From Puniceicoccales bacterium (GTDB lineage Bacteria; Verrucomicrobiota; Verrucomicrobiia; Opitutales; JAIRLM01): DNA of 35,876 bases. The translations under genes and the position numbers were made by a program. Shown here in pieces: positions 5,922-35,876 of this stretch. The stretch spans positions 1 to 35,876 of the forward strand of contig JAITDL010000044.1 of assembly GCA_031282565.1 (NCBI GenBank), written 5' to 3'. Positions within the stretch are counted from its first letter, which is position 1, and each line of letters starts with the position of its first letter. Below the pieces are notes generated by a model. It had not been told where the DNA came from. It worked only from the letters and a program-made list of their open reading frames with translations, and ran no database searches.

Positions 5922-5977
5922 CCGATAAGTTGTTGGCTTTGAGTAAGTTGTGCGCCGTTCATCGGCCTGCGCCGCTC

Positions 5978-7570
5978 CTAGCAGGGATCAACGACGGTTT
6001 TTTCGCAAATGGTTTTCGGAGAGATGCCGATCTCCTTTCGTATGTAGCCAAGGCTTTTCATAAATTTTGCCGGGTCGGCCGTGAAAATGCAAAATTCCAC
6101 CTCGCTGCGACTCCGTTTGCCGCCGCATTTTGAAAATTTCGGCCCGCTCCATTGGCAATCGGTTAGGTTGTTAAGGGCGCTACCCCAGCGAGTTGCGAAA
6201 TTTTTTAGCCCATCCCCATCGCCGCTGGAAAAATTTTGCACAACTAGGTGGCGGTACGGAGGATAGCCCAATTGGCGACGGGCGACCAATTCCTCTTCGC
6301 AGAATGACGTGCGACTGCCGCCTAGAAAATGTTTCAGCGGTGCGCATTCTGGCTTAGTTGTTTGCAGAAGAAGTTCTCCACCTTCGCCGATGGCGTCGAA
6401 AATGCGCCATAGCAGTTGGTGTGCCCGTTCGTTACTGCGAAAACTACGTCCACAGAATAGGTTATCGCCGTCGAGAAGGGCCACGGTGGCTGGACCTATG
6501 CGTTCGATTGCTGCCGTGTCGATGTTTTCCGCCAGCAAGATATCGCAGTCCGCCGTGGCGTCTCCGCTGTCTGATGATCCGAAAATGGCCGATGGGAAGT
6601 ATTTGTGCAGAAGCGATTTCACTTTTCCGATGCCGGCACCGATCCTCCTAAGCCTTCCGCGACACCTATGGCAGCGCTGATTTGGCGGGCATTCCGTTTT
6701 GCAGCGGTTGCAGATGTGGCCTCCGCGCAGAGCGACGCAGGTGAGCGGAGTGTCGCACTGTGGACAGCGGAAAAGTTCTTCGCAGCGTGGACAATAGGAT
6801 CGCGAAAATCCTCCGCGCGGGTGGATCAGCAAATTTTTTTTGCCAGTTTCCATGGCATCCTCAATTTTTCGCAAAATCTGCGGCGAAAGCAGCCGCTTGC
6901 CGGGATCTAGCCGCGATTGGTCAATGATGGAAACCGTTGGTCCGCTGCGACATTCATCTTTTTCCACTTCCATTTTAATGGAGCCGCAGATCGCAGCGTG
7001 GTACATCTCGACGGAAGGAGATTGGCTCAGCAGCAGGCATTTGATGTTCTCCAGTTTTGCCCGCTCAATGGCCACATCTCTGCAGTGGAAGTGCATGCCG
7101 TGGCGGCTGTGGAAATGGGCTGGATTTTCTTCGCCGCAAACAACTATGGCGCAGAGATTTGCCGCCGGAAGAAACACCGCCGGACCGGTGCCAACTACAA
7201 TGGAAATTTCCGATGAGCGGAACCCGTTGAGAACGCTGTCGCGTTCACACTCTTCCATGGCGCCGTGCCATTTCGCAACGGAAACGCCGGGGCAGGATTC
7301 GCGAATGACCTCGAAAAAATGATCTACTTCTCCGCTACTTTCGTGGAGCAACAGCAGCTGACAATTAACATTAATCTTGCGCGCTGTCGCCGAACAATCC
7401 ATCTGGAGCGACAGGATGAGGTGGTCTCTTAGTGTTTGGTGCGTGCGGGTACGAGACGGTTGTATCAATTCCATCAGCAGGCGCAGGCTGTCTGCCGGCT
7501 CCTCTAAGCGGTCTTTCATCAATGACCTGGACCCTACCAGTAGCGTTAGCGTTTTCTGGGAGTTGGTCAT
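5978..7570 (-). CDS. priA: PriA-like primosomal protein N' with degenerate helicase motifs and no N-terminal DNA-binding domains
   Basis: 530 aa. It has the PriA-specific Cys-rich zinc insert CPRCEELFRCPQCDTPLTCVALRGGHICNRCKTECPPNQRCHRCRG. It also shows collinear similarity to PriA lobes 1 and 2 and the C-terminal domain (...IVVGTGPAVFLP...CRDVAIERAKL...LLSQSPSVEMY...LLIHPRGGF...GELLLQTTKPE...RRQLGYPPY). See the findings for the motif degeneration. Confidence 0.75.
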   Translation of the reverse strand: MTNSQKTLTLLVGSRSLMKDRLEEPADSLRLLMELIQPSRTRTHQTLRDHLILSLQMDCSATARKINVNCQLLLLHESSGEVDHFFEVIRESCPGVSVAKWHGAMEECERDSVLNGFRSSEISIVVGTGPAVFLPAANLCAIVVCGEENPAHFHSRHGMHFHCRDVAIERAKLENIKCLLLSQSPSVEMYHAAICGSIKMEVEKDECRSGPTVSIIDQSRLDPGKRLLSPQILRKIEDAMETGKKNLLIHPRGGFSRSYCPRCEELFRCPQCDTPLTCVALRGGHICNRCKTECPPNQRCHRCRGRLRRIGAGIGKVKSLLHKYFPSAIFGSSDSGDATADCDILLAENIDTAAIERIGPATVALLDGDNLFCGRSFRSNERAHQLLWRIFDAIGEGGELLLQTTKPECAPLKHFLGGSRTSFCEEELVARRQLGYPPYRHLVVQNFSSGDGDGLKNFATRWGSALNNLTDCQWSGPKFSKCGGKRSRSEVEFCIFTADPAKFMKSLGYIRKEIGISPKTICEKTVVDPC

Positions 7571-14700: not shown

Positions 14701-15491
14701 TTTGCGTCGATTGATTTTGACGCATCTCCAACCAGCACATCAATTCGTCTGTCGGAATTCAATAGTGAATCAAGATCAGCTTGCGGAATTCGCAATTGAC
14801 CTACCGCAGAAACAATAGCATCATCTCCTGATAGCAATGCCATCCACAGCAATATTGTGCCAACATTCATGCACCTGGTAGATTCGTCGCCGTAGCCCTT
14901 TGATTGCATTGCTTTCGCCAGACTAATTACGCCTTCAATGGCTCTGGCATTTGCCGCATTAAGTGCCGCTTCAAGTGGAATTTCGGTCGCCGACGAAAAA
15001 TGGCTACCACTCGGTAAGGATTTTATACCGGCGCATAGTTTCAAGCTGCCATGAATTAGTTCGCACAAGTACCAGGGGCTGATGAAGTCAGAGAAACGCG
15101 TTGGTTCATCTAGGTCGCTGAAGTACACCGAGGTGTTTGCGGACAGCAAATACAGAATTACTGGGCTTAAATTGCCATTGTATTCAATTTGCTTGCCGTC
15201 ATTGCTGTCGACGAGGTGCAATTCGAGCCTGCTCGAACTATCAGCACTGTCAGGGGAAAGTGCGATGGAACGAATTGCGACAAGAAATTTATCGCAAGCT
15301 GAGTCAACTCTAGGTAGCGGATCGAACTCGGCGATTTTTTCCAAGTCCCCTGAGTTCAGTATTTCTTTGACGGCATCAAAATATCGCTTTGGTAGCTCAT
15401 TTTGTTCGACTACAGCCGCAGCAGGTGCTGCTTCAGGACTGCCTTGTTGCCGACTGACTGCTGGATCGCCCATTTGCCCACATGGAAGCAT
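11706..15491 (-). CDS. Giant orphan protein A (paralogue of B). Helical-repeat-like, with a C-terminal hydrophobic anchor.
   Basis: The maximal ORF is 11706-15617 (1303 codons). The likelier starts are ATG 15491 (MLPCGQ) or 15473 (MGDPAV), because the first 42 codons look non-coding. No enzymatic motif is visible. C-terminal module ...YCIICIFIIFFFGFLFRTMREITWLVFSVLTMG... followed by a Lys/Pro-rich tail. Confidence 0.8.
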   Translation of the reverse strand: MLPCGQMGDPAVSRQQGSPEAAPAAAVVEQNELPKRYFDAVKEILNSGDLEKIAEFDPLPRVDSACDKFLVAIRSIALSPDSADSSSRLELHLVDSNDGKQIEYNGNLSPVILYLLSANTSVYFSDLDEPTRFSDFISPWYLCELIHGSLKLCAGIKSLPSGSHFSSATEIPLEAALNAANARAIEGVISLAKAMQSKGYGDESTRCMNVGTILLWMALLSGDDAIVSAVGQLRIPQADLDSLLNSDRRIDVLVGDASKSIDANGFLSRYLTFKPNARCGLGPELNDGVGENLKILARNSPALLGKLFSASADDVKKEWVELLTRMIIKEELTGSEIEKLLEALPVEFFGLLNRCAKTESGDVELPLFQHMFEHCSAKQLEAINPKWLEDVSCLGGYDAASKAARHRCRGVNEAYKSIPKNIVGSLTAPNGQARNYTVLHILAGVLTYGTAEQIAAITNEQLDALAEFKRDSFNALLNSIGTEISENSALSYEDKIGKDFAIRVSSLTNDHYNSAICKHLLRNCASRFLNAANDNYGIFMLRDSARLLEVISSIDFERLVIDDKSSKSCLAFAMVAIFGAQHSNDQRIKDKSAELIRQCVTGEQIAAVANAIESTSVPGSDFATAAVLTKAFGDFTIADMRKSIRGTEALSRYVAYIKDAKPAQNSGSAKLNEALTRRPVRTKHAGDSGLTSATSAARDTIDDNVAAIVTTYETKNQIAAHINQLVDIFFNAEQAAKYLRKAHIKPILDAIYAAGDRRFSDALDIVFSDGGPPVAIEVISDWIKSLNDVKTAGAKTPETAIGVFAYILANPSKKIKLNGQDVALFDIVLKKTINFTNAIELTLDQSYAQKLADNGLPSTAGELVAKLEAKRLQEIFATLPPLTAASVESNSRAAEFYAAAICKILESVNRHITFLEKHSEALPALLEIAYGSGLMPLAQLAECVRDCASRTIGEKMLSAALNIIKTADDNDLLSIVDQLNIENMPEHPPQKNDIINAACYHIVFSKPSLLKSVDDAPLTIISCLGNIAAGCDGEKTMADAIYELTDGDCAQFRQAVVEMLAEHAITPFVKPVMAAITASPAGDGSQQQPTGDQDASQPTSSSATKSAADFTLLAKLTAGTGRSGNILIAYQSPDDGGIDQATRVHIIAGTSTLKKLNLERYESGLAILRGAMDAAENGKSVAGYCIICIFIIFFFGFLFRTMREITWLVFSVLTMGQKAAEVAKVGLKIAGKRQEVTKKLPKPKPGITPDTKKEKPEEDTA

Positions 15492-15818
15492 TTTTTTTTG
15501 TAATGTCAAGGGTGTCCGAATGGCGATTGCGTGTATTTGAACTAATTGCCGGCCGCCATTTCGCTTAAAAAGCAAATTGCGCGCGAATTCGCAGTGCGGC
15601 GCAAATGGCTGAGTCAAAAAAACTCACAGGAAAATTTGCCGCAGACATTGACGAACAGCTAAAATGCCAATGCGCGCCACAAAAAACCTTAACTAGCGGC
15701 TGTAAAATTTTTGCGCGTCGCCATTTTCAGCGGAGGCTTCCGCAAATCGAGCGATTTTGCATTTTTTTACCTTTACTTCGCTGGCACATTGGGCAACCTA
15801 TTGATCGTGGTATCTGCT
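15492..15818. promoter_or_regulatory. Shared divergent control region between giant paralogues A and B
   Basis: About 330 bp without convincing coding sequence between the likely starts. It contains four GCAAAT/ATTTGC boxes (15573-78, 15602-07, 15635-40 inverted, 15742-47), a 10-bp palindrome GCGAATTCGC (15584-93) and TTGACA at 15503-15508 on the minus strand. Promoters are assumed rather than demonstrated. Confidence 0.4.
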
Positions 15819-18782
15819 ATGACAGGTATGGATAGTGGCAACGTAAAGCAGGCCGATGATTGGGCTGTTGACTCGAATATTGCTGTTTTTTTGGCACTTG
15901 TTACCACTCAGCTCTCCATTGGCTCCCCCAGTAAAATCGAAGACGATGAAAAAAGCCTTAGTGGTGCGATCATAGCTAGTGCGCACGCCACATTGGGTGG
16001 CTATTCGCTTTGCACTTTGAGCGGCCTAACACCAAGCGACGCTAAATTTAATAGCTGCTTCGTTGGCAATCCATATGCGTTCATGTTTGCACTGGCGAAT
16101 GGCTGCGACATTAATGCAGAAGGTGGCGCTACGGAGAATATTAGTTTGGCGTGCAAACTAGACGACAATTCCGTATTTACGCTTATTTGCAAAAGTCTGC
16201 CAACCATAGCGGAAGCTGCATGCCTCGCAAGAGATGATGGCAATACCGATCTTGCGAAGGAAATTGATGAGGCTAGCACTAGGATGTTTGCGAAGGTTGA
16301 CTTTGAAACTGCAAAACGCTGGGCTAGCATTATCAGGAAAAGGGGATCCGCCAATTCGGCGAACTACGAAAAGCACATTGCGACATTTCTCGCGAAGCTG
16401 TTTTGTGGAGTATTCATATACGGCAGCCAAGAAACAATTAAATCATACGACGGAAGTGGGGCTGATTTTTTTGCGCCCATTTCCGGTCCGATTTTTGATT
16501 TCGGCTTCGAAGAGAGAATAAAGTCCAGCCAGGAGGAGGAAATACGCGGTGACTCGTGGGTCATTGCTGCGGTCGGTGACCGTGCTATTCCAGGAAGACA
16601 CGTCGATGATTTTGCAAAGTCGATGCGGGCGAGCCCTGAACTTACAGAATTTTTACTTGAAGTAGCCGACGGAAAAAACGCAGATCAAGTGGCAAGGGCC
16701 GTGCGTGAAGTTCCATCGCAGCTGACAGGTGCGGGCGCCAGATATGAATCATTTGGCGAAAACTCCAAACTGCTAGTCAATCTGTCACTTACTGCGGAGA
16801 ACGCCCAACAAGTGTTTTCCACAGCAAATGGCACGCAAATTGGCGGGATTAACTATTTGGAGCTAACTAAAACTGTAGACGATGGATATAATGCTGGATG
16901 CCAATGTCCTTTTATAGATACATTGCCTGCTCGGCAGGCCATAGCTGCGGCAGGTCCGGCCATAGTTGCTGGGCTCGAAACTGGGCCCGAAAAGTTCACA
17001 GGGTCATTGGTGGCGATGGCAATTCTGCGGTTTGGTGGTGTGGAAGCAGTTAACGCGCTAACTAGGGAGCAAATCGACGGTGCGATAGAAGGTGTTACTG
17101 CCGCAGAAAATCAGCGAAGGATACGTCTAGGAAGCCAGCATCAAGAAGTGGTTAGTGGAGTAACTTGCGGCGTGTCGTTTGCAAATTTCTATGGAGCCAG
17201 ATTGCAACCGGCTGCCGCTGGACCTGTGACTGCCGAAGAGGAAAAAAAGTTAATCAACGATACGGCACATGCCATTGGCTCTGCGGTATGTGATCGGGGA
17301 AGTGCAGCGTCCGAAGTGCATGGCAATGGGTTTTCCAATCACCCGAGAGAAGTTAAATTTTCGCCAAACTATAGAAGGATTGTGCAGGGATTGAGCGGAA
17401 ATTCCTGTGCTTTAGCTTTTCTTGCCGAGGAAGCTCCGCGCGAAGTGTTGCAGTTTGTTCGTCTGAGCCAGGCCACTGATGGCTGCAAAGGCGAGATGTT
17501 TAAAAATTTTGCCAAGGTAATTGGCCCCGACGAAGTTAGAGGGCTTTTCACTGAAAATGAGGAGACATTGGATCCGCAGCTGGCTAGATCCGACTATCGC
17601 CCAGACCATGCTGCGCGCGATCTTTTCTTTGGATACCTGCTCATGTGCGGTTCAGATAGCCAGCGCAGAGCTCTCAGTGAGCGGCAGTTGGTTCTTGGGT
17701 TGAATGCCATAATGAAGTACAACGAAACTAGTGTTTTGCCTCTCGCCGGCTTCCCGACTGCCGCCGTGTGCCGCGAATTGTTCAGCAGGTTAAGTGATGA
17801 TGTTTTGGTAAAATTGGAACCGCAGCTCGATGCCGAACGTAGCCAACTGGATCAGCAAATGCGCATTGCCATTCAGCATCACATATTCTTCAGCGCCAGG
17901 GGGAAGCTTTCAGATAATCTCAGCGGCGAGCAGCTATTCGAGGTCATGCATGCAATCGCAATAAGCGGTGCCGCGGCCGCTGTGCGCGATGGCTCGACGA
18001 ACCTAACTGACACGAGATTGGATGACAGCGGAGATACTTTTCGCCGCGACAGGACAATTGTTGAATTTGTTGCCACACTCAGCAAGGCGCAGGCCAAGAA
18101 GTTGGTTCTAGTAATCAATAATGCTGCAGCGGATGGAAATGGCGGCAGAGAGAAAATCAAAGAGATTTTGTTTGGCTTCGCAGATCAGCCGGCGAACGCA
18201 TTTTGCGTCCTTGCTCCGCGGCAAACATTTCCCGTAAATATCCAGCTACTTGGCATTTCCCGCGGCGTGCCAGACTCCATTTCCGCATTCCCGACGCTGG
18301 CTGCGCTGATTGAAAAATCCGGCAAATCGATGTCAAATGATGTCGTTGAATTGCTGATTGCGAATAGTTTGCCGGCAGATGATATAAGTAAGGATTTGGT
18401 GGCAACGGCTGTGAACATAGTTAACCACGTGGCACTGTTGACGGTTTTCTCCGTGGAGGAATTGCTGCCGCAGATTTCGGATTCAAGTAAATCGTCATTT
18501 TGGCGCATCACCGAACTTGCCAATGATCCCAATAGAAGCCTCATTGGCGTTCGCATCATAGTGCTTCTGCAGCTGATCTTTTTCGGATTTCTTTTTCAGG
18601 AAATTCGCGCGCAATTTTTCATCGCCTGGCGCGTGTTCTACGCAAGCAACGTGGTAGCAAATGAAATTCTAACTGCCGTACTGTTCGCCACCGCCATAAG
18701 CTCCCATGGATTCCATGCCGTATACGAGAAGTCCGGCATAGGCGGCGCCGTTGGTAAAGATGCGTTTGTGCCAATTGAGTAG
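15819..18782 (+). CDS. Giant orphan protein B (paralogue of A). Helical-repeat-like, with a C-terminal hydrophobic anchor.
   Basis: The maximal ORF starts at TTG 15711 (1023 codons). The first ATGs are at 15819 and 15828 (MTGMDSGNV). No enzymatic motif is visible. C-terminal module ...RIIVLLQLIFFGFLFQEIRAQFFIAWRVFYASNVVANEILTAVLFATAISS... Confidence 0.8.
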   Translation: MTGMDSGNVKQADDWAVDSNIAVFLALVTTQLSIGSPSKIEDDEKSLSGAIIASAHATLGGYSLCTLSGLTPSDAKFNSCFVGNPYAFMFALANGCDINAEGGATENISLACKLDDNSVFTLICKSLPTIAEAACLARDDGNTDLAKEIDEASTRMFAKVDFETAKRWASIIRKRGSANSANYEKHIATFLAKLFCGVFIYGSQETIKSYDGSGADFFAPISGPIFDFGFEERIKSSQEEEIRGDSWVIAAVGDRAIPGRHVDDFAKSMRASPELTEFLLEVADGKNADQVARAVREVPSQLTGAGARYESFGENSKLLVNLSLTAENAQQVFSTANGTQIGGINYLELTKTVDDGYNAGCQCPFIDTLPARQAIAAAGPAIVAGLETGPEKFTGSLVAMAILRFGGVEAVNALTREQIDGAIEGVTAAENQRRIRLGSQHQEVVSGVTCGVSFANFYGARLQPAAAGPVTAEEEKKLINDTAHAIGSAVCDRGSAASEVHGNGFSNHPREVKFSPNYRRIVQGLSGNSCALAFLAEEAPREVLQFVRLSQATDGCKGEMFKNFAKVIGPDEVRGLFTENEETLDPQLARSDYRPDHAARDLFFGYLLMCGSDSQRRALSERQLVLGLNAIMKYNETSVLPLAGFPTAAVCRELFSRLSDDVLVKLEPQLDAERSQLDQQMRIAIQHHIFFSARGKLSDNLSGEQLFEVMHAIAISGAAAAVRDGSTNLTDTRLDDSGDTFRRDRTIVEFVATLSKAQAKKLVLVINNAAADGNGGREKIKEILFGFADQPANAFCVLAPRQTFPVNIQLLGISRGVPDSISAFPTLAALIEKSGKSMSNDVVELLIANSLPADDISKDLVATAVNIVNHVALLTVFSVEELLPQISDSSKSSFWRITELANDPNRSLIGVRIIVLLQLIFFGFLFQEIRAQFFIAWRVFYASNVVANEILTAVLFATAISSHGFHAVYEKSGIGGAVGKDAFVPIE

Positions 18783-20595: not shown

Positions 20596-21809
20596 CTTCC
20601 ATGTTTAACGATAACTGGGTGGTAGGTATTGAGCCAACCACGGCTCCAGGCGAATTTGACACGCTATTGGAGAAAAAAGGCCACTATTCATGGGGCAGAC
20701 CTGGTGTGCCGATTGTTTTTAGAAAAGGCTTCCACATGAAAGGTGGCGATGGAAGTATCGCAATGGAGTTCGCCTCACGGTTTGTGGATGCGAAGGTTGG
20801 AGAAAGTGTTCATCTTGAAATGGGCGCTAAAAATAGGAAATTGACTGTTGTAGTCAATAAACAGACGAAAAGCTTCGTTGCCAATGTCGATAGGCTTGTC
20901 AGAGGAGATAAGCCAGACCGGCGCGAAATCGTCATATGGTGGGCCCTGGCAATTATCACCTGTGGAATTTATGTCGCGCTAGTAAATAAAAGCACGCTCG
21001 CCAAATCCTATAATGTGCTGCAGTCGAGAATTGAAAAATTTCCTGGAATGGCGCGCGAAATGCAGGTAGTTGCCTGCTTGCTCGATATGGTTGCCGAGAG
21101 CGCCACCCCCATCTGTCGCAGCCAAGACTTGCCGGCAATGTTTGCGGACATACTAAATACGTACTACGCGCGGGTCCGCAATGAAGGAGATTTTACGCAC
21201 ATAGAGGAAGCCAGGGCATCGGTCGCGATTGTTGCAAATGTCCTTGGGGGATATGGCTGTGCAGATGCCTTTTTACAGCGCGTTGTGCTGGATATTCAAC
21301 CGCGCAAAGACGAAACTAGTGGAAAATATTTGCCCGTTGAACGAGTAGTTCCTGCTCCCGTTGTGCCAGCGGAACTTCCTCCGGTGCCCGAATGTGCCGC
21401 TACGTCGGAGTTGCCGGATGTGCGAGAGCTGGAGGATATGCCGGAGAGGCCTGGTATATTTATGCCAAATGGTCGGCGGTTGCGGAGGGACGTTCCGGGC
21501 AATGCGAGGTTTATTTTGCCGCAAAGACAGGGTGAGGGTGGTGCCGTTTCCGCCTGGCGGCGTGAAGAAAATGCAAGGAGGCGCGCAGCCGATGCCCCAA
21601 CGCCACCTGCATCGGAAGAGCAACATGACGCCGACGCGCCGTCACCGGAAGATGATGCGTTGATTAATTTGGCGAATGAAGATCCAATGAAACGTATCCA
21701 GGAAGAGATGTTGGGGGTTGTCGCGAAAGCTCAATTCGATGGGCCTAAACCGGCGACGGATGGTGATCCGTCCGTATTTAGGACGCCTCCCACTAAAAAA
21801 GGCACGTGA
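20553..21809 (+). CDS. Orphan protein (418 aa) with one TM segment and a Pro-rich, charged C-terminal half
   Basis: ATG at 20553. TM segment IVIWWALAIITCGIYVALV. C-terminal ...VVPAPVVPAELPPVPECAATSELPDVRELEDMPERPG...APTPPASEEQHDADAPSPEDD... No recognisable family. Confidence 0.6.
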   Translation: MANPPHSVGSSDEPPSMFNDNWVVGIEPTTAPGEFDTLLEKKGHYSWGRPGVPIVFRKGFHMKGGDGSIAMEFASRFVDAKVGESVHLEMGAKNRKLTVVVNKQTKSFVANVDRLVRGDKPDRREIVIWWALAIITCGIYVALVNKSTLAKSYNVLQSRIEKFPGMAREMQVVACLLDMVAESATPICRSQDLPAMFADILNTYYARVRNEGDFTHIEEARASVAIVANVLGGYGCADAFLQRVVLDIQPRKDETSGKYLPVERVVPAPVVPAELPPVPECAATSELPDVRELEDMPERPGIFMPNGRRLRRDVPGNARFILPQRQGEGGAVSAWRREENARRRAADAPTPPASEEQHDADAPSPEDDALINLANEDPMKRIQEEMLGVVAKAQFDGPKPATDGDPSVFRTPPTKKGT

Positions 21810-24693
21810 GCGACACCTCCAGTGACCCGCTGGTGTACTCTTTCCTGGAGAACTTTCCGGTGCCGTACATGGCGAGTTCACACTGGCGACCTATGCCAGT
21901 TTTTGCGCCGACTGTTGCCACGGCTTTCCCCTTGCGGCAGTGGTCGTTGACTTTTGCGATGAATGGATTTTCCAAGTTGTCAGCCGATCCAACTGCAGTC
22001 GTATGGCGTTGCTTCTGTTTTGTTTCAAATCCTGCGCGGACGAATAGCCGCGATTTTAAGTCCGGATCAATGCTAGGCTGTCCAAATTCCAGGTTTATGC
22101 CTACGATGGCTACTCCGATGTCGTGGCTGACTTCCGATAGACTTGCCCTGCTCGGGCCGCTGCCGGTTTCTTCGTATTTTTTGTGGCGGACGTAGTTGTA
22201 GCGCGCTTCAGCCCAGGGGCCAAATTGCACGGAGCCGAAGCGTAGGACATTCTGCGATAAAAGAATGAAGCAGTGCCCGCCGAAATCGTTGAACCTTGCC
22301 AGGTATTCGTCGCCCTGGACGCTGATGCGGGCGGAAGAATTCTTGCCTCTGCTGCAGCCGCACAGTACGTTAAGTGTCGTGCGCTTTTTGTGTGCACTCA
22401 TGTGGTCGAAGTGTGATGCCACAGCTGCGAAACAGGAATCGTGCTGCGTTGTCTTTATGCCGAAGTTTATTGTTTCGCCGGCGCAATCGACTCTGTTTCT
22501 GCCGCAGCCAACTAGGATTCCATAGCGCATGGAGCTGTTCATTGAGTGTGACACATAGGCTTCTCCAAGTACAAGCCCGTGGAATTTGCCGTCCAGCCAG
22601 AAGTCGCTGTCGTCATCATAGGGCTCATAGCGCGTTGTGCCGGCGAAGGCTGAGACAAACATCCCGCTGGCGTATGAGTTTGCCACGTGCTGCGTGCCGG
22701 AGTGGAGGCCAACTTCGAGCAATTCAAGTTTGGCCCGCGTAAGGTCGCCGTGGGGGAACACTTCCGCGTAGCGCTGGTACCTAGCAGGCGAGGCTCCAAC
22801 GATTTGGCCGTGCAGCGCATCATATGCGTTTTGGAGTTTCGCCACATTTTCGTAGAATTCTGCAAGCTTAGCAAAATTCGAGCTGTGTATGTCTGTGGTG
22901 CTTTCTAACGTGGAAAGTTTTTCTGTGAGTCCTGTTACTATTTCGCTGAGTGCAGAAAGGTCCTCCAGCGTGGCCAACACCCTATCGCCTCCATCCTCAA
23001 TGGTACCATTTTTGAGCTGTTCTTTCAGGTTTTCAAGGTCGCCGCTATTGGTTGGGCTACTTTGCAGGTCGCTCTTTTTCGCAAAATTCTCTTCAGCATC
23101 ATTTTTGCTGAGATAGTCGCTAAGGCTGTTGTTTAGTGCCTCCGTAGTCGCGTAGGTGTTGAGCTCGCTTTTCGTTGCAAATGTATCAGTTAAGTCGTCC
23201 GTTGCAGCATAGTTTGTGAGGTCATTTTTCGTTGCATAGGCGCTGAGGTCTTCTTTTTTTACGTATGTGCCATCTAAGCCGTCCGTTACAGCATAGTTTG
23301 TGAGGTCGCTTTTCGTTGCATAGCTATTTAGATCTGCCACCGTTGCGAGATATTGCGTGCTGCCATTTTTGTAAATTTTCCCCTCTTCCAACTTGGCCCT
23401 AAGAATTTTCAACTTAGCATCTAATGCGGCGACGTCTGACTTTAGGGCCAAAGTCGGCTGCCCACAGTGGCAGTTGCAATCGCCTGCCGTGCAGCACACT
23501 TCCTCCGTTGCGGCACCAACCGTGCAATCGCATGCCTGAAATCCGTCACAGCCGTGGACGTGGCTGCATCCGATTAGTCTATTTAGCAGATCAATGGTCA
23601 CGAGAGCATTTTTGCTGTCGATTTTGCCATCCTTTAGGTCCGCCTTTAGTGCGTCGATGGCATTGCCAACGCTATCGGTCACCGATGCCGATGTGGCATA
23701 GGTTGCTTGCGCTTCCGTCTTGCTGAGGCAGCTATCTTCCAGGGCAGTAAGGTCATCCGTTTTTGCCAGAACCTGTGCTTCGCAATGGGGAAGCTTCCCC
23801 TGTTTCAGTGCATTTTTTAGGGATTTGAGGTCGCTGTTTGTGGCAAGGATCTTGTTTCCGCAGCCTGGAGTATTGGTCAATTTGCCGCTCTCAAGAGCTT
23901 CTTTTAGGTCTCTAATATCTTCCACCGTTGCCAATTTTTGCTGCTTCCAAAAATCAATTTTTCCTCTTTCGAGTGCATCCTTCAGTTTTTCAAGATCCGA
24001 GTGCAGTGCAAGTATTTGCGCCGCTCCATGTTCGGGACTGAGCTTGCCATGGTTTAGCTGCCCAATAAGATTGTTTAATCTTTCCGTTGTCACTAGTTCC
24101 GGACCGGTCCTGTTGCCATTTACTTCGCCATTTTGCAAATTTTTGGCGAGATTCCCAATCGCATCGTCGACGTATTTCTGGACCGACGAAAGATCAATTT
24201 CGCCGCCGCCGCCATGCTCCTGGATGTAACCGATTAAATCGCTTTTCACGCTTTTAATTTGCTCTCCAAGAGCTGCCAGCTCACCATCTGTCGCGAGATA
24301 TTTAGTGTCATTGATGGCGCCGGTTTGCAAAAGTTCATCGGCTGAATCCATGGCGGCATGTATGCCGACTTCGCACCGCTGGATGTACTTCGGCATCCAG
24401 TTTAGGTATGCGTATAGCGCATCAAGATTGGCAAAATTTTCGAGGCCGTGAGCTAAATATGTGATCTCTTCCCTTGACAGCGGACCCGAATAATCTCCTG
24501 GGGCGAGGTAGCGCTCATCGACGTCATTGTATTTCTTGTAGCCTTCCCTAAACGTGTCGAAATCTACTTCATATGCCGGCGGCACCTGTGCCGTGTCATC
24601 TGCGAATGCCGGAGAAGATCCGGAAAATATCGGCGCCAAGGCTAGTGCGGCGGCTAGGAGGATTCGACGCCTGGTGGTGCAACAGGTTCCCAT
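21793..24693 (-). CDS. Type Va autotransporter-like outer-membrane protein with a repeat-rich, coiled-coil-like passenger
   Basis: Signal peptide MGTCCTTRRRILLAAALALAPIFSGSSPAFA-DD. The C-terminal ~290 aa show an alternating beta-strand pattern and end in ...SLEVSLTCLF (terminal Phe), as in autotransporter beta-barrels. The passenger carries LATxxDLxxLKxALxxGK modules, a 9-Cys cluster and YATKxDLTNY repeats. Confidence 0.78.
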   Translation of the reverse strand: MGTCCTTRRRILLAAALALAPIFSGSSPAFADDTAQVPPAYEVDFDTFREGYKKYNDVDERYLAPGDYSGPLSREEITYLAHGLENFANLDALYAYLNWMPKYIQRCEVGIHAAMDSADELLQTGAINDTKYLATDGELAALGEQIKSVKSDLIGYIQEHGGGGEIDLSSVQKYVDDAIGNLAKNLQNGEVNGNRTGPELVTTERLNNLIGQLNHGKLSPEHGAAQILALHSDLEKLKDALERGKIDFWKQQKLATVEDIRDLKEALESGKLTNTPGCGNKILATNSDLKSLKNALKQGKLPHCEAQVLAKTDDLTALEDSCLSKTEAQATYATSASVTDSVGNAIDALKADLKDGKIDSKNALVTIDLLNRLIGCSHVHGCDGFQACDCTVGAATEEVCCTAGDCNCHCGQPTLALKSDVAALDAKLKILRAKLEEGKIYKNGSTQYLATVADLNSYATKSDLTNYAVTDGLDGTYVKKEDLSAYATKNDLTNYAATDDLTDTFATKSELNTYATTEALNNSLSDYLSKNDAEENFAKKSDLQSSPTNSGDLENLKEQLKNGTIEDGGDRVLATLEDLSALSEIVTGLTEKLSTLESTTDIHSSNFAKLAEFYENVAKLQNAYDALHGQIVGASPARYQRYAEVFPHGDLTRAKLELLEVGLHSGTQHVANSYASGMFVSAFAGTTRYEPYDDDSDFWLDGKFHGLVLGEAYVSHSMNSSMRYGILVGCGRNRVDCAGETINFGIKTTQHDSCFAAVASHFDHMSAHKKRTTLNVLCGCSRGKNSSARISVQGDEYLARFNDFGGHCFILLSQNVLRFGSVQFGPWAEARYNYVRHKKYEETGSGPSRASLSEVSHDIGVAIVGINLEFGQPSIDPDLKSRLFVRAGFETKQKQRHTTAVGSADNLENPFIAKVNDHCRKGKAVATVGAKTGIGRQCELAMYGTGKFSRKEYTSGSLEVSLTCLF
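23059..23355 (-). repeat. In-frame tandem repeats inside the autotransporter passenger (YATKxDLTNY-type)
   Basis: Protein sequence YLATVADLNSYATKSDLTNYAVTDGLDGTYVKKEDLSAYATKNDLTNYAATDDLTDTFATKSELNTYATTEAL... At the DNA level, two 49-nt copies lie 84 nt apart (23191-23239 and 23275-23323) and differ at 4 positions, with a degenerate third copy near 23163-23183. Confidence 0.75.
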
Positions 24694-24894: not shown

Positions 24895-25329
24895 ATGAGC
24901 ACGAGCACATTGGCCAAGAAGGAGCAGCACGGCGCTGCCACGAAGAAGTGGTATCTCTTCGACGCGTCCGAGGAGATTTTGGGTCGCATGGCGGTGCGCG
25001 TGGCCAACATCCTGCGCGGGCGCCACAGGCCCACCTACACGCCCCACGTCGACAGCGGCGATTTTGTAGTCGTGGTCAATGCCGACAGGGTGCGCCTCAG
25101 CGGAAAGAAAGATAGCCGAAAGAAATATATGTTCTATACCGGCTACATGGGCAACGAAAAGTATCGCACGCCGGCGCAGATGCGCGTCCGTGACCCGCGT
25201 TTTGTCGTCGAGCACGCCGTTAGGGGGATGATGCCGAAAAATCGTCTGGCAGACGCCGCCATCAAGAAACTTAAGGTCTACGGTGGACCGGATCACCCAC
25301 ACGCGGCGCAGAACCCGGAAAAACTTTAG
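24895..25329 (+). CDS. rplM: 50S ribosomal protein L13
   Basis: 144 aa. WYLFDASEEILGRMAVRVANILRGRHRPTYTPHVDSGDFVVVVNADRVRLSGKK...YTGYMG...AVRGMMPKN is canonical L13. GGAAAG/AGG purine-rich stretch upstream of the ATG. Confidence 0.97.
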   Translation: MSTSTLAKKEQHGAATKKWYLFDASEEILGRMAVRVANILRGRHRPTYTPHVDSGDFVVVVNADRVRLSGKKDSRKKYMFYTGYMGNEKYRTPAQMRVRDPRFVVEHAVRGMMPKNRLADAAIKKLKVYGGPDHPHAAQNPEKL

Positions 25330-25341
25330 GAGATTGCAACG

Positions 25342-25752
25342 ATGTCACCGTCAACCACAGCAAAACCGGAAGAATTCATAGCCACCGGTCGCCGCAAGAC
25401 CGCCGTTGCGCGTGTGCGCATTGTCCGCGGGACTGGAAAGATAACGATCAATGGCAAGCCGGCCAGCGGCTACTGCCCGCAGGATGAATTTCTGCGCGTG
25501 GCATTTGCACCGGCAAAACTCGTCGAAATGGATGCCATGCTAGACATGCGCATACGGGTCGAGGGCGGTGGAATAGTTGGCCAGGCTGGTGCCATCGCCC
25601 ACGGCGTCGCCCGTGCCCTGGCTGCCATGCAGCCTGAATTGCGGCCGGACTTGAAGAAGAACAAAATGCTCACCCGCGATCCACGCATGAGGGAGCGGAA
25701 AAAATCTGGACAGCCGGGCGCCCGCAAGCGCTTCCAGTTCTCAAAGCGCTAG
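25342..25752 (+). CDS. rpsI: 30S ribosomal protein S9
   Basis: 136 aa. ATGRRKTAVARVRI..GTGKITINGK...GGGIVGQAGAIAHGVARAL...LTRDPRMRERKKSGQPGARKRFQFSKR is canonical S9. It starts 12 nt after rplM. Confidence 0.97.
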   Translation: MSPSTTAKPEEFIATGRRKTAVARVRIVRGTGKITINGKPASGYCPQDEFLRVAFAPAKLVEMDAMLDMRIRVEGGGIVGQAGAIAHGVARALAAMQPELRPDLKKNKMLTRDPRMRERKKSGQPGARKRFQFSKR

Positions 25753-25808
25753 ACCGTTCCAGATCTGCCTTGACTGCGGCCGGCGCACCGTCACAGTTGT
25801 GCCATTCC

Positions 25809-26102
25809 ATGGCGCTCACAGAGGAAAAACGGTTGGCCGTCACGCGCGAGCTGCTTCGCACGGTCCAGGGTTCGTCGCCGAGCATATCGCAGATTGAGGG
25901 CATTTTGTATAATTTTGACCTCCAGGTCGACGACGTCGAGAGTCGCATCTTTATCCTATCCCGCCTCGCGGAGCTTGTGCGGGAATTGTCGGTTAAACTG
26001 TTCCGCTCCACAGATCAGCGCTTTGACGTCATCGACATCGTCCAGGAAGTTCTCGACCACTACATCGAGGTTGAGGACATCATAACTGACGAAGTTTCCT
26101 AG
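25809..26102 (+). CDS. Small acidic orphan protein (97 aa from ATG 25809)
   Basis: The ORF opens at TTG 25770, and ATG 25809 (MALTEEKR...) is more likely. By my count there are about 20 Asp/Glu against 10 Lys/Arg. It is predicted helical and has no known motif. It lies directly downstream of rpsI and upstream of the repeat-flanked cassette. Confidence 0.45.
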   Translation: MALTEEKRLAVTRELLRTVQGSSPSISQIEGILYNFDLQVDDVESRIFILSRLAELVRELSVKLFRSTDQRFDVIDIVQEVLDHYIEVEDIITDEVS

Positions 26103-26123
26103 AGCTATGACCCATTGCCACGG

Positions 26124-26210
26124 CAGCAGATCGGCTTTTTGCTGAAGAGGCGCCGCGAAATGACATTTTGTCAGCGGCTCAGCACTGCACCGCGGCGCCT
26201 GGCCCCGCCG
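26124..26210 (+). repeat. 87-bp direct repeat, copy 1
   Basis: cagcagatcGgctttttgctgaagaggcgccgcgaaatgacattttgtcagcggctcagcactgcaccgcggcgcctggccccgccg. It is identical to 27016-27102 except for one base (G/T at repeat position 10). It contains a perfect 10-bp inverted repeat AGGCGCCGCG (26148-57) / CGCGGCGCCT (26191-200) around a 33-nt loop, which itself holds TGAC-ATTTT-GTCA. Confidence 0.95.
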
Positions 26211-26393
26211 CAACAACAAAAATTTTAGAATTTTTTTTAGACCCTCCACCAATTTTTTTGCGAACCGAGTGCCGCATGTTGGCCTATTTTTTCACTGTCT
26301 GAGTGACTGAGCTGGAGGGAAATAGGCAAAAATGCAAAAAAATTACAAATTTTTATTGCGCCTATTTTTTTACATTTCATCCCATGCGCTGCT

Positions 26394-31234: not shown

Positions 31235-33055
31235 TCAGCTCGACAGCTCGATGATATCAGGCGTGGTAATGTCCGGCCTGGCAACTGCTATGACGCAATT
31301 TCCCGGAAGAGGAAATATCACCTTACCGTATTTCAATGTCAGATATTCCGACAAAGCTGACATCGGGACTGCATCGAATTTATTGCCATTGCAACTACCG
31401 ACGACGGTGAGTTGAGCGCGCTCATCACTTCCAGACGCAATGGCGCACACAAATGCGAAGCGTTCAGACGGAGGCAGTAACTCAAATGCTTTGTCGAAAC
31501 GGAGAAAGGAAAAACATTCATCCTCGGATAACATGAGCTGGAGTCGAGAGATTTCGATGGCAGATTGTCGGACGGCAGAGGTTTGCGTGCGAATTAGTGT
31601 AACAGTGCCATTTGGATATGGTGAATCCACTATGACTCCGCAGCAGCTGTGGCCGTAGGCGGGCGTTTGCATTTCGTCGTTTGCCTCCATGGATATGCCC
31701 AGCATTACAAGTTCGCCACCTGCCAAATTGAACCTTCTACCGCAACGAAACAAGGCCGCGCATAGAAGCTGCGGAGTAGCATTTGCTAGAAATTCCGCAT
31801 CACATTGCGGAATTTCCGGTGAACCTGAAAATGCCATATCCCTTTTTCCAGTAAATTCATCGGCCATGGCACGGCCCATCATAAATTGTATAACAACCGG
31901 CGTTGTCATGAAAATGTAAACATTTGGCCGGGAAGAAGTTTCGCCGAATGATATAATGGCGGTTATGGTGCCAAAACGGCGAAGAAGTTCCAATTGCGGT
32001 TTGTGTTCAACGATGCATTCTTCGAATAGTATGCCGCCGTAGATGTTGTCCACGACAATCCTTCTTGCATTTGGAGTAAAAAGCATGACGCGGCGCATGA
32101 GATGCGCCCTTTGGACGGTTAGTTCGTTGCAGCCTGTGTGGTGGCAATCCGCGATAATTCTTTGCATTGGCACAAGACGGTCCACAACCTTTTGGTCTGC
32201 GCCTGCCATAAGCATTGAAATGGCGTCGATGGCAATTGCAATGAACACCCTTTTGTCGATTAAGAATAGGGATTTTTTTAGAAAAACTTTCCTCAGTGCA
32301 GCCAGCGGCGAGTGAATGCTCGCGAATTCGGCTGGAATTTCGATGGAATCTGCCATTGGGCCATTGTCTAGCGAGGCATAGTGCACGACCAATTGCTTCC
32401 CATCGCCGTCGCTTGCGAATTCAAGCACCAAATTCCAACGGTCCATGAGCTGCTCGAGAAGTCCATCGCCGCTGCGTGTCGCCATGCAGTGGAAAACACA
32501 TTCCATTGAATATTCATGGTCTAGATCACAAAGTCGATGATAGCCAATGGTTGACGTGTATCTTTCTCCGGAGAGTTTCCTTGCAAGTTCTCCGAGTCCG
32601 ATTTTTTCAAATGCCGGTAAAAGTTGGACGCGCAGTGTGATTTCACCGGCGTGGCGTAGGATCGTTGTCCTGAGTATGGCAATGGGAGGAGGTCCCAGCC
32701 GCATGTCCCCAATTGGGAAATTGAATGAGGCTGGCATGCGCTGTGGGTCTCCGCCTGGAAATTGCAGAACGAGTTCTCCGCGACCAATTAAAACGACAAT
32801 CATGTTTGCGTAGAGTTGCATGTTGTTGTGGCGCAAAAATATCAACCAAGACAGGACGCTGCAGTCATCGGCCGTATCCTGGATGATTTCGTAGGACAGC
32901 GCCGTGATCGCTGCGCTTCGGAACATTTCTGGCGTCCGAATGGCGCAGATATCAAAAATGCGACTAACTGTTGCTGTCCGTTGGTCTTCCGCTAATGGGG
33001 GATAGAGTTTAATTGCCCTGTCGACTATCGCTACGTATGCTAACGGTTTATCCAT
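31235..33055 (-). CDS. Orphan protein (606 aa)
   Basis: Long ORF with an ATG at 33055 and ordinary globular composition. I cannot place any signal peptide, TM segment or catalytic motif. Its stop codon (31235-37) directly abuts the lspA stop (31232-34). Confidence 0.7.
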   Translation of the reverse strand: MDKPLAYVAIVDRAIKLYPPLAEDQRTATVSRIFDICAIRTPEMFRSAAITALSYEIIQDTADDCSVLSWLIFLRHNNMQLYANMIVVLIGRGELVLQFPGGDPQRMPASFNFPIGDMRLGPPPIAILRTTILRHAGEITLRVQLLPAFEKIGLGELARKLSGERYTSTIGYHRLCDLDHEYSMECVFHCMATRSGDGLLEQLMDRWNLVLEFASDGDGKQLVVHYASLDNGPMADSIEIPAEFASIHSPLAALRKVFLKKSLFLIDKRVFIAIAIDAISMLMAGADQKVVDRLVPMQRIIADCHHTGCNELTVQRAHLMRRVMLFTPNARRIVVDNIYGGILFEECIVEHKPQLELLRRFGTITAIISFGETSSRPNVYIFMTTPVVIQFMMGRAMADEFTGKRDMAFSGSPEIPQCDAEFLANATPQLLCAALFRCGRRFNLAGGELVMLGISMEANDEMQTPAYGHSCCGVIVDSPYPNGTVTLIRTQTSAVRQSAIEISRLQLMLSEDECFSFLRFDKAFELLPPSERFAFVCAIASGSDERAQLTVVGSCNGNKFDAVPMSALSEYLTLKYGKVIFPLPGNCVIAVARPDITTPDIIELSS

Positions 33056-33204: not shown

Positions 33205-33741
33205 GTGGCTGATGATCAATCTGGAAGGCGTCGCGCTTCGTCGACGCGGAAAACGGTCCTCGTCGTTGCCGGCGGCTTTGTTGCTCTCGCGCTGGCTCTT
33301 GGCATTTTTGCAATTCGGCGATCCATACGGAAATCGCAGGATGAACGCTTTTTCCGCGAAATTATGCTGATGCAGGAGGCGCTGGAGCAGTACGCCAATC
33401 AGAGCGGCCGGGGAGAGCCATCCTATACAACTCTGCGGCATGCCGATGTCCATGATGACGTCTCGAAAACGCCGATTAGCGGCAAATGGCGCATCAGGCA
33501 CAGCGGTAAGGGGAAAAATCGGGCATCTACGGAAATAATTGTGGAGCAGCCAGATAGGACGTTGAAGCAGATGGAGAAAATTGATGCAACCGTTGACGAC
33601 GGTAACCTGGCGACTGGAAATTTTCGTCTCGTTGCGCCAGACGACTATGCAATTAAGCTGCTGGACAGCGATCCGACGGATTCGGATTCATCAGGGTCAG
33701 ACGGCGCTTCGACGGCGAAAACAAAGCGCGGTACAAAATAG
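33205..33741 (+). CDS. Membrane-anchored orphan protein (178 aa), faintly pseudopilin-like
   Basis: GTG start. Basic N-terminus, then one TM segment (TVLVVAGGFVALALALGIFAI), then ...ERFFREIMLMQEALEQYANQSG...EPS and ...IDATVDDGNLATGNFRL. These recall the N-terminal helix and body of GspG-type pseudopilins, but the G/FTLxE prepilin cleavage motif is missing. Acidic, Ser-rich tail. Confidence 0.5.
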   Translation: MADDQSGRRRASSTRKTVLVVAGGFVALALALGIFAIRRSIRKSQDERFFREIMLMQEALEQYANQSGRGEPSYTTLRHADVHDDVSKTPISGKWRIRHSGKGKNRASTEIIVEQPDRTLKQMEKIDATVDDGNLATGNFRLVAPDDYAIKLLDSDPTDSDSSGSDGASTAKTKRGTK

Positions 33742-33783: not shown

Positions 33784-35799
33784 TTAATTGTGCTCTTGCC
33801 GAGTAATCATGTAGAGATAGTTAAATCCGCCGCCGTCTTTCCCAAATGATCCGCATTGAAAGCCGCCTCGCGTCGAAAAAAACGTGCACGGGATGGGTTT
33901 CCCATCAAAACCACAGCAAAATCCAGCGGAAACTGGTTGATATAATTTCTCGTCAGATGATCCGCCGCCGGCATCCGTAGCTCTGTCAAAATTGCGCCAT
34001 CTGTCTATGTAAATTGGCACGATGTCGAGCGCAATAAGCTGCTCAATGATAAAATCTCCCACGGTGCCACGGGTCATGCTGCGTGGAGCTAATGTGTCTG
34101 CGCTTGAAAGTTCTTTCCCCCTAGCACAACATGAAATCTTCGCGGTTCTGGTCCACGTATCAATTTTGCCGCCATCCCGTAATAGATCTTCAATCGACAT
34201 GGCTTCATTCATGTACTCGAGCAGTTTTCCACGGAGTTGTGTTCCATCGTGGTCACCGAAGTGATAGGCGGCTTTCGTCGCAAATTGATCAACGGAGAGG
34301 TTATCTCCAAGAATCTCCGCCAATGACTTTTGCTTAAGTGCCAGCATGTGCGCGCCCATTGCATCGCAGATATCTTGCAGCGGAGATTGGGCGCCAATTC
34401 GTCTGCAGCCATCAGCCGACACTAGTGGAGGTCCTGAAGTTGATTTTTCCATCCATAAATAGTGCTTATCTATTCCTCCAAGGAAACCGATTACACTGGG
34501 ATTCCCTGCTTCATCCATCACTATCGCATCAATTGTTTTTTCTTCATTGAAGTCTTGGGTATGACTTGATTTTTTGTCTGGGAGCTGGTAAACTCTTGTA
34601 ATGGCATATCCATCTCCAAGGTATGCCGGAATGATCTCCGTGTAAATTTCAAACGAAATCCCGAAGGCATCTGCTTCCTGGTCAAAATTTTCTATTCCTC
34701 CAACGGCAAGCGGCACAAAATCTTTCTCCAATGGGTTCGCGCGGCGGTATGCTGCCGCTGCTGCGGGAGCGGCGGCACGTACTGGTTCCATGGCAGTCCG
34801 TTCCCATGCGCCTTGTAAATGGCATGGATGTCCTTTCCGCGGAGCCATTGCCGCAATTTTTACTATCTTGCCATCTATTACAATGTATATGCAGCCCTCT
34901 TCAACAAGACTCTTCAGCTCCGCGAACATGCGCCGCGGGTATTTGAGCTGTATTAGGGCAATGATGCTAATGATGCCGCAATTGCCGTCGGCGTACTGCA
35001 TAACGGGCAAAAGCGCGGCGGTAAGTACTTTCACTCGAAATTCTTGGAGAACATCTTCGATGGATTGTGGGTTCGCCAGCAGTGCCAGTAGGACGCTGCG
35101 CGTTACGCGGCAGCAATCTTCTGGAACAAGCAGCGCGAGAAAGCATTCGGCCTTTGCGCGCTGGAATTTTCCATCGCCGCCGATGCAGGCCGCTGCAATT
35201 TTTCCGGCGAGTTCAAGTGAAACGCCGCACACAGCGTCCGGCGCAAATTCTATGGGTCCATCAACTGATGTATTACTGGCTATAACTGACAATTTAACGA
35301 AATCAATGCATTCCTGGCGACTTAGCACCATGTTATCTGGCAGGTTGCTTGCTAATTCACCGAAATTCAATGTGGCTAGGACACTATCTGGATCCAGCCA
35401 CGAGGAACGACCCAGCTTCCGCCCAATTTGAAGGTTGAACCCAGCATTGCTAAGACGCATATTTTGCCGTATTCGTGCGAGGTTCAATTCGGCGAAATTG
35501 CGCAGTGCGTCGTAGTGTTCACGGGGTAAAACTGTTTGGACGCTCAATTCAACGTGCGCCGGCACGTCTGCCGCGTCATCTTCCGGCGGAACTTCTGGCG
35601 TCGCTGCAGGTACAGGCGTGGAAGCAATTGGCGGCGTTGTACTAGCAGCCTGCTTGCCAACATTCGCCGCGGGACCTTGGCTTTCCGGCTCGTCATCAGC
35701 CGCCACTGCTGGTTTGCCGACAACTTCTGCCGTTGCCGGGTCCACTTTTGCCGCTGTGGCATTTGTTTGTTTGCGTTGAATTGCAGGCACATGGACCAA
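33784..35799 (-). CDS. Orphan protein (671 aa) with an OTU-like cysteine-protease signature. Candidate deubiquitinase-type effector.
   Basis: ATG at 35799. The first ~85 aa are Ala/Pro/Thr-rich and look disordered. ...VMQYADGNCGIISIIAL... gives Asp271/Cys274, and ...FLGGIDKHYLWME... gives His446-Tyr447, 172 aa downstream. This matches the OTU arrangement of DGNC plus H followed by an aromatic residue. The C-terminus is Cys/Gly-rich. Confidence 0.7.
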   Translation of the reverse strand: MVHVPAIQRKQTNATAAKVDPATAEVVGKPAVAADDEPESQGPAANVGKQAASTTPPIASTPVPAATPEVPPEDDAADVPAHVELSVQTVLPREHYDALRNFAELNLARIRQNMRLSNAGFNLQIGRKLGRSSWLDPDSVLATLNFGELASNLPDNMVLSRQECIDFVKLSVIASNTSVDGPIEFAPDAVCGVSLELAGKIAAACIGGDGKFQRAKAECFLALLVPEDCCRVTRSVLLALLANPQSIEDVLQEFRVKVLTAALLPVMQYADGNCGIISIIALIQLKYPRRMFAELKSLVEEGCIYIVIDGKIVKIAAMAPRKGHPCHLQGAWERTAMEPVRAAAPAAAAAYRRANPLEKDFVPLAVGGIENFDQEADAFGISFEIYTEIIPAYLGDGYAITRVYQLPDKKSSHTQDFNEEKTIDAIVMDEAGNPSVIGFLGGIDKHYLWMEKSTSGPPLVSADGCRRIGAQSPLQDICDAMGAHMLALKQKSLAEILGDNLSVDQFATKAAYHFGDHDGTQLRGKLLEYMNEAMSIEDLLRDGGKIDTWTRTAKISCCARGKELSSADTLAPRSMTRGTVGDFIIEQLIALDIVPIYIDRWRNFDRATDAGGGSSDEKLYQPVSAGFCCGFDGKPIPCTFFSTRGGFQCGSFGKDGGGFNYLYMITRQEHN

Positions 35800-35876
35800 T
35801 GTGACGAAGAAAACGCGCAGTGGACGGATTAGTACGATGTCGCATATGGTGCGGCGGAAGGAGTTTTTGCCGTCCA

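Follow-up and report, generated by a model that had tools for sequence, protein, structure and literature searches.

Does the gene at the end of contig JAITDL010000044.1 of a Puniceicoccales bacterium (assembly GCA_031282565.1) encode an OTU-type deubiquitinase, as a short signature in its product suggests? The stretch of DNA analyzed, here called the window, comprises 35,876 nucleotides (nt) and starts at position 1 of the forward strand; the gene in question is the last one on the contig. Its open reading frame (ORF) 33784-35799 on the minus strand amounts to 671 amino acids (aa) when counted from a TTG start. The peptide VMQYADGNCGIISIIAL carries D271 (34987-34989) and C274 (34978-34980), and the peptide GGIDKHYLWME, which contains H446 (34462-34464) and Y447, follows at a Cys-His distance of 172 aa. 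The initial annotation had interpreted D271, C274 and H446 as the triad of an OTU cysteine protease, and all three motif positions were confirmed from the sequence. The analysis described here nevertheless leads to a different reading, as membership in the OTU family is not demonstrable. Judged from its sequence, the protein is tentatively proposed to represent an undescribed family of papain-like cysteine hydrolases that may resemble deubiquitinases and act specifically on Gly-Gly (ubiquitin-like) substrates. The probability of this proposal is estimated at about 0.45.

A small protein family from termite guts

An exhaustive phmmer search over 1.84 billion cluster representatives yielded four genuine relatives of the window protein, with P0004 being left out as a false match to a repeat protein. 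Two of them, P0003 with 707 aa and P0005 with 703 aa, are paralogues that share 35% identity and are encoded by one Puniceicoccales metagenome-assembled genome (MAG; GCA_031268315.1, isolate Gsp477_bin156). P0006 (705 aa) stems from the IMG metagenome 3300042596, and P0002, from IMG 3300042612, is a 217-aa fragment cut by the contig end. With the three full-length relatives, the window protein shares 21-23% identity and can be aligned collinearly from end to end; pairwise identities within the family range from 21 to 35%. The presence of collinear homologues of equal length indicates that the minus-strand ORF 33784-35799 is coding and belongs to a real gene, which is truncated at the 5' end. 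The description of the protein as a strict orphan no longer holds, given these four distant relatives, all of which were obtained from termite-gut metagenomes.

A word-indexed search of 5.8 billion proteins, for which the single protein, the alignment and P0003 were employed as queries, returned only the query itself and P0005. Scanning 185,579 GTDB species genomes with the family alignment revealed relatives in one Puniceicoccales MAG only, and the same scan with the single window protein revealed none. No relatives were detected in JGI metagenome contigs and IMG/VR, or by tblastn among plasmids and phages. The label "Gsp477" refers to a metagenome from Glyptotermes, a lower termite (PMC11707648). 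As far as it has been sampled, the family is tiny, fast-evolving and confined to Verrucomicrobia of lower-termite guts.

Conservation of the putative catalytic residues

Conservation was counted in an alignment of the window protein with the three full-length relatives, which spans 586 columns and contains 40 invariant ones; with four sequences, such statistics are thin. Only two of the 17 Cys residues of the protein (C205 and C274) and one of its nine His residues (H446) are invariant. The Gln residue located six positions before the Cys (Q268) is invariant as well, as are three Glu residues (E94, E253 and E495). The residue that follows the His is always aromatic (HY, HF, HY and HF in the four members), while the next position is occupied by L, V, M or E, and the distance between Cys and His varies from 170 to 191 aa. 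Both C274 and H446 had been chosen in advance from one sequence and were then found to be invariant in all full-length members, so that the refutation foreseen in the initial annotation, a lack of conservation in homologues, did not occur. The Asp of the proposed triad did not survive this comparison: none of the 40 Asp residues is invariant and D271 is replaced by Lys in P0005.

The Cys block AALLPVMQYADGNCGIISIIALIQLKYPRRM (aa 261-291; 34927..35019, minus strand) includes the invariant residues Q268, G272, C274, G275, Q284, R290 and M291. The best-conserved 21-aa segment of the family is centered on aa 282 within this block (rank 1 of 566), and a locus-finding tool also picked the Cys block as the most conserved pattern. 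The His block GGIDKHYLWME (aa 441-451; 34447..34479, minus strand) has G442 and H446 as invariant residues, and either Tyr or Phe at position 447. The bare tetrapeptide does not exceed chance expectation, as the six-frame translation of the window contains DGNC twice and DG[NASH]C five times. The observation rises above chance because C274 and H446 are conserved and because the Cys block ranks first in conservation.

Comparison with the OTU family

Several features are shared with OTU deubiquitinases (PF02338; MEROPS C64/C65/C85), which include OTUB2 (1TFF), Cezanne (5LRU) and A20 (2VFJ) as well as the bacterial ChlaOTU, Legionella Lot proteins and SnOTU. The Cys precedes the His in the sequence, the literal D-G-N-C tetrapeptide is found in three of the four family members, the His is followed by an aromatic residue, and the Cys-His spacing is 172 aa in the window protein and 173 aa in OTUB2. 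A divergent, genuine OTU deubiquitinase effector with the triad D271/C274/H446 would account for these similarities and for the conservation of C274 and H446. Even the loss of the Asp residue could be accommodated, since some OTUs lack the third acidic residue or can do without it (PMC10643670). Bacterial OTUs are sometimes very divergent, and one Legionella family scored barely above p<1E-4 in a published screen (PMC7391069).

Profile searches argue against this explanation. Pfam-A was searched by hmmscan at E<=10 with the window protein, five relatives and the trimmed Cys-His segments of four members, and neither the OTU model (PF02338) nor any other peptidase model matched any of these sequences. 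No match was obtained from NCBIfam, PHROGs and PADLOC, nor from PDB sequences when searched by phmmer and with the family profile. For profile-profile comparison by hhalign, references were recovered from PDB alignments (OTUB2, Cezanne, A20, MINDY-1, MINDY-2 and MINDY-3), and default and greedy settings were employed. Probabilities against the OTU references stayed within 0.1-0.5%. For OTUB2 (0.13-0.3%), the trimmed domain gave a pairing of the two DGNC tetrapeptides that spans 11 columns (P=0.18), and greedy extension allowed Cys-Cys and His-His to be aligned collinearly. For Cezanne and A20 (0.3-0.5%), the best local alignment was located away from the Cys. In the default alignments, the two DGNC tetrapeptides were not paired when the profile based on full-length sequences was compared with OTUB2 or Cezanne/A20, or when the trimmed domain was compared with the A20-type OTUs.

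The residues surrounding the Cys differ as well. The family reads C-G-[IV]-[IV]-[AS], whereas the solved OTUs compared here read CFYRAL, CLLHAA and CLMHAT, so that G-[IV]-[IV]-[AS] stands in place of [FL]-[YLM]-[RH]-A. Position -6 is the invariant Gln in the family and Thr in OTUB2, and the Asp at position -3 is not kept. The family proteins are approximately 700 aa long and possess large conserved flanks for which no OTU counterpart exists. According to Hermanns et al. (PMC7391069), USP, UCH, OTU, Josephin, MINDY and CE-clan enzymes commonly carry an aromatic residue after the His, and a conserved His-[FYW] is 477-fold enriched in deubiquitinases and ubiquitin-like (UbL) proteases over other cysteine proteases. 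As this motif and the Gln(-6)-Cys pair each occur in several papain-fold deubiquitinase classes, neither of them points to OTU. The OTU-type catalytic layout that had been proposed is partly supported, with the Cys, the His and the aromatic residue after the His retained in all full-length members. An OTU entry (5lru) appeared among the Foldseek matches of a predicted structure with a mean predicted local distance difference test score (pLDDT) of 41, and was dismissed as noise (E=3.3, TM score 0.07-0.11, root-mean-square deviation 16 Å). Taken together with the slightly better scores of the MINDY references (P=0.03 vs 0.12-0.18, none of them significant), these results make a divergent OTU enzyme very improbable.

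Comparison with further papain-like proteases and a proposed mechanism

The MINDY deubiquitinases (5JKN, 6Z49; MINDY-3, 9RMD) share with the window family a Q-x3-G-x-C pattern that is followed by a hydrophobic helix, as is evident from ITQNENGPCPLLAI and LEQFEGGPCAVIAPVQ in comparison with VMQYADGNCGIISIIALIQ. MINDY-1, MINDY-2 and MINDY-3 all display the Q-x5-C spacing of the window family; MINDY-1 and MINDY-2 carry His-Phe, and the Cys-His spacing of MINDY-2 is 182 aa. The hhalign comparison with MINDY-1/2 and MINDY-3 aligned the Gln and the Cys with their MINDY counterparts over approximately 20 columns at a probability of 1.1-1.6% (P=0.03-0.05), which is not significant even though the MINDY references gave the best P among those tried. 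Unlike MINDY proteins, the window family has no match to the Pfam MINDY models (PF04424 / PF13898). A full-length hhalign match to MINDY-3 was rejected as spurious, as it was located at the C-terminus. In 2023, MINDY was stated to be without known non-eukaryotic members (PMC10643670).

A precedent for a bacterial papain-fold deubiquitinase outside the eukaryotic classes is provided by RavD of Legionella, which has the papain fold typical of deubiquitinases and cannot be assigned by sequence to a eukaryotic deubiquitinase family (PMC10643670). The window family differs from it in that no sequence similarity to any PDB chain was detected, a result that covers RavD if its sequence is included in the copy searched. 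When the short profile of the Cys block was compared with the PDB, the sole protease match was the papain-like protease (PLpro, with a USP-like fold) of the coronavirus IBV (4X2Z). This match aligns on the catalytic-Cys motif 'ILEWRDGNCWISSAIVLLQ'; with E=0.59 over 21 residues and nothing else aligning, it is at chance level and not significant.

Among the features expected of a clan CA peptidase, the family shows an invariant Q268-x5-C274 and H446 downstream of it, and a helix start at position 275 is suggested by a low-confidence structure model (model 1, described below). In the mechanism proposed here, a central alpha+beta module (approximately aa 260-470) would form a papain-like (clan CA) cysteine hydrolase. 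Its nucleophile would be C274, positioned where a helix begins, with H446 as the general base, and the invariant Q268 would contribute to the oxyanion hole. The invariant aromatic residue that follows the His (Y447) would act as a "gatekeeper" that limits substrates to those with a Gly-Gly-type C-terminus, i.e. ubiquitin or ubiquitin-like proteins.

The same constellation of Cys, His and Gln would suit a papain-fold enzyme of other chemistry equally well. A deamidase, an enzyme of the transglutaminase/acyltransferase type, a double-glycine leader peptidase or a self-processing domain could be envisaged, whose substrates would be bacterial and not those of a host. Gln-x5-Cys-Gly and a His followed by an aromatic residue are also found in double-glycine (C39-type) leader peptidases. 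In C39 or NlpC/P60-type domains, the Cys-His spacing is much shorter than the 170-191 aa found here, and Pfam gave no match to C39, transglutaminase-core, NlpC/P60, CHAP or similar models. No transporter or bacteriocin-like genes were found as neighbors in any of the four loci. The lack of a secretion signal or host link (see below) is in line with such an enzyme, which is nonetheless considered quite unlikely.

Predicted structure

AlphaFold2 was used to predict the structure of the core (aa 86-671, three sequences; model 1) and of the region aa 145-480 (four sequences; model 2), which resulted in mean pLDDT values of 41 and 51, respectively. Model 2 is confident only in the helical region aa 145-265 (pLDDT 66-88). 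Most of the protein is predicted to be helical. In both low-confidence models, the Cys is followed by two helices, a hairpin, a long helix (327-354), a further helix (383-394) and a strand (398-405). Only model 1 places C274 at the N-terminus of a helix that starts at residue 275, and H446 in a beta-strand.

Evidence opposing the hydrolase proposal and the syntenic orthologue

Besides the thin statistics of a four-sequence alignment, a number of observations weigh against the proposed papain-like hydrolase. No profile, sequence or structure search ties the protein to any peptidase family, and the hhalign probability did not exceed 1.6% for any reference tried. The Cys-His region has pLDDT values below 50 in both AlphaFold models, H446 is not part of a strand in model 2, and Foldseek searches of the PDB with both models returned best E values of 0.85 and 0.77, which is noise. 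The sequence around H446 is averagely conserved (rank 234 of 566), and no invariant Asp or Asn that could complete a triad is found in the roughly 40 residues that follow the His. With regard to a role outside the cell, the N-termini of the homologues (VKIFLNLSSSTG..., MMEISLLVNGES..., MKEISKLESTSK...) contain no Sec-type signal when inspected by eye, and no secretion-system linkage of the gene was found.

A further opposing point comes from contig L007, which shares the gene order IleRS-DksA-LspA-small gene-target with the window. The neighboring genes are 57-69% identical between the two loci, and the orthologue on L007, P0002, is only 39-46% identical to the window protein, which indicates that the target gene evolves faster than its neighbors. 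The segment aa 405-561 of the window protein (34117..34587, minus strand), which comprises the His block and the helical region after it, is replaced in frame by 14 residues in P0002, and H446 is lost. The conserved motifs on either side of this segment are retained in the fragment. These are LQxxWERTAM (LQGAWERTAM in the window protein, aa 328-337; 34789..34818, minus strand), which lies in the predicted long helix and has L328, Q329, T335 and A336 invariant in five of five relatives, YLGDGY (aa 393-398; 34606..34623, minus strand), with L394, G395 and Y398 invariant, and P-x-Y-x5-N-F (aa 595-604). The retention of flanking motifs without the His segment suggests that the parts kept in all five proteins are not the putative dyad.

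These findings would be explained if the protein were not an enzyme and its protease-like appearance were coincidental. In a lineage-specific protein that serves as a scaffold or adaptor or is associated with the envelope, the Cys, His and Gln residues could be structural or metal-binding (e.g. C205/C274/H446 plus a Glu). A possible metal site is offered by C205, the other invariant Cys, and the three invariant Glu residues, no homology to any catalytic family was detected, and the largely helical prediction is compatible with such a role. Against this explanation stands the specific three-part coincidence that it would demand, as the highest conservation falls on Q-x5-C-G and the hydrophobic helix that follows, and a His-aromatic pair is located at a papain-like distance. 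In addition, P0002 comes from a metagenome contig of 2.9 kb that is cut inside the gene, and it may represent a decaying copy. A non-enzymatic protein is accordingly regarded as rather unlikely, at odds clearly worse than even. Confidence in the papain-like hydrolase is not set higher because the His segment is lost in the nearest orthologue and because no evidence for the fold was obtained.

Secretion and a possible eukaryotic target

Secretion of the window protein and a eukaryotic target are both putative. The window does contain genes for proteins E and F of a type II secretion system (T2SS) and an autotransporter gene, which are unlinked to the target gene. The best hydrophobic segments of the homologues reach Kyte-Doolittle values of 1.3-1.6, which is borderline for a membrane helix, and an interpretation of their segment "FIAFFIWIF" as a membrane anchor or Inc-like element was dropped for this reason. 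The 25 additional N-terminal residues that precede the TTG start were compared with the N-terminal hydrophobic segment of the homologues, and the match was discarded as its score was no better than that of shuffled sequences.

The verrucomicrobial "termite/Nucleococcus cluster" comprises nuclear and cytoplasmic endosymbionts of gut protists (PMC8204192). The existence of this cluster makes a eukaryotic target plausible, and the window organism may belong to it. A more far-reaching proposal is that the window gene and its four relatives would be the founding members of a new class of papain-fold, Gly-Gly-specific (ubiquitin/UbL) proteases, used on the ubiquitin system of a protist host. Such a class would be unrelated in sequence to OTU, MINDY, UCH, USP, Josephin, ZUFSP, VTD and CE-clan enzymes and would have evolved in Verrucomicrobia living in or on termite-gut flagellates. 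All parts of this proposal taken jointly are considered unlikely.

Extent and organization of the gene

The reading frame remains open from the TTG at 35799 up to the contig end at 35874, with no stop codon in between. The whole gene thus covers 33784..35876 on the minus strand (stop codon 33784-33786), is 5'-incomplete and comprises at least 696 codons. The public gene call P0001 is a partial protein of 696 aa, and the homologues measure 703-707 aa. As the frame is open to the contig end, the 5' end of the gene is probably missing, and the low-complexity segment formed by aa 1-85 (35545..35799, minus strand) is probably an internal linker and not the N-terminus. Its richness in Ala, Pro, Val and Thr (A19, P13, V11, T7) agrees with the initial description of an Ala/Pro/Thr-rich N-terminus in composition, whereas the N-terminal position probably does not hold. 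The homologues carry a K/S/E/N-rich linker at the equivalent place.

The helical region before the Cys block (aa 145-265; 35005..35367, minus strand) is conserved and includes the invariant residues C205, K216 and E253. The C-terminal region (aa 575-671; 33787..34077, minus strand) is beta-rich as well as rich in Gly, Phe and Cys, and its motif P595-I-Y-x5-N603-F is invariant in five of five relatives. The Cys/Gly-rich C-terminus noted at the outset was verified, with the final 60 aa containing G12, F7 and C4. A promoter scan revealed no promoter-like site near the gene. Terminator-like sites near the gene numbered eight, compared with 3.3 expected, and occurred at scattered positions.

Genomic context

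The target gene is adjoined by a convergent 178-aa gene and a 606-aa orphan, followed by the genes for LspA, DksA and IleRS. No paralogues of the target are encoded within the window. The other three loci of the family have no neighbors in common with the window or with each other, which indicates the lack of a conserved operon partner. The 178-aa ORF (33205-33741, plus strand) has a counterpart of 154 aa at the equivalent position of L007, with which it shares 69% identity; its product features an N-terminal hydrophobic helix (VLVVAGGFVALALALGIFAI) and has no family assignment. The 606-aa ORF (31235-33055, minus strand), located between lspA and the 178-aa gene, has no match in Pfam, NCBIfam, PHROGs and PADLOC. 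A Logan contig of SRR14710905 carries this ORF and the otherwise syntenic L007 lacks it, which points to a lineage-specific insertion or loss.

Two of the other loci also contain uncharacterized neighbors. Directly upstream of P0005 (L003, 4259-9687), three related orphan genes of 568, 600 and 568 aa are arranged in tandem; their mutual blastp E values range from 3e-34 to 2e-7 and no Pfam match was obtained. After P0006 (L006, 3322-3952), a gene for a YoeB-type toxin and the small gene upstream of it form a putative toxin-antitoxin pair, which is followed by a 1151-aa orphan.

Other features of the window

Two giant ORFs are arranged divergently at 11706-15617 (minus strand, 1303 aa) and 15711-18782 (plus strand, 1023 aa). 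Neither contains Pfam domains, and a weak similarity over approximately 120 aa near their C-termini (blastp E=5e-4) suggests that they may be distant paralogues. The autotransporter mentioned above is a 966-aa protein (21793-24693, minus strand) with a C-terminal autotransporter beta-domain (PF03797, E=3e-10) and a passenger region that matches no family. A stretch of approximately 1.1 kb (25303-26393) is devoid of ORFs of at least 150 aa on either strand and yielded no Rfam or tRNA match.

A PriA-like ORF of 530 aa (5978-7570, minus strand) matches TIGR00595 at positions 51-452 with 178.9 bits, compared with a cut-off of 230, and represents either a short or divergent PriA or an ORF with a mis-set start. 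A tRNA-Leu(GAG) gene is located at 5840-5923, just upstream of this ORF. The gene for T2SS protein F (2577-3809, plus strand) overlaps by approximately 400 nt with a 771-aa ORF (3405-5720, minus strand) that has no family match. Probably, the 771-aa ORF starts further in or one of the two overlapping ORFs is non-coding. The overlap region shows a strong negative AT skew.

Implications

If the signature is not catalytic, the window protein adds to the number of lineage-specific orphans and illustrates that OTU membership cannot be diagnosed from DGNC...HY in one sequence. If it is catalytic, the family would constitute a new sequence family of clan CA hydrolases and perhaps a new deubiquitinase-like class. 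It would come from a phylum and habitat, Verrucomicrobia with termite-gut protists, without characterized host-directed effectors of this kind. With this family, the "aromatic gatekeeper" rule for detecting deubiquitinases that are invisible to profile methods could then also be put to a useful test.

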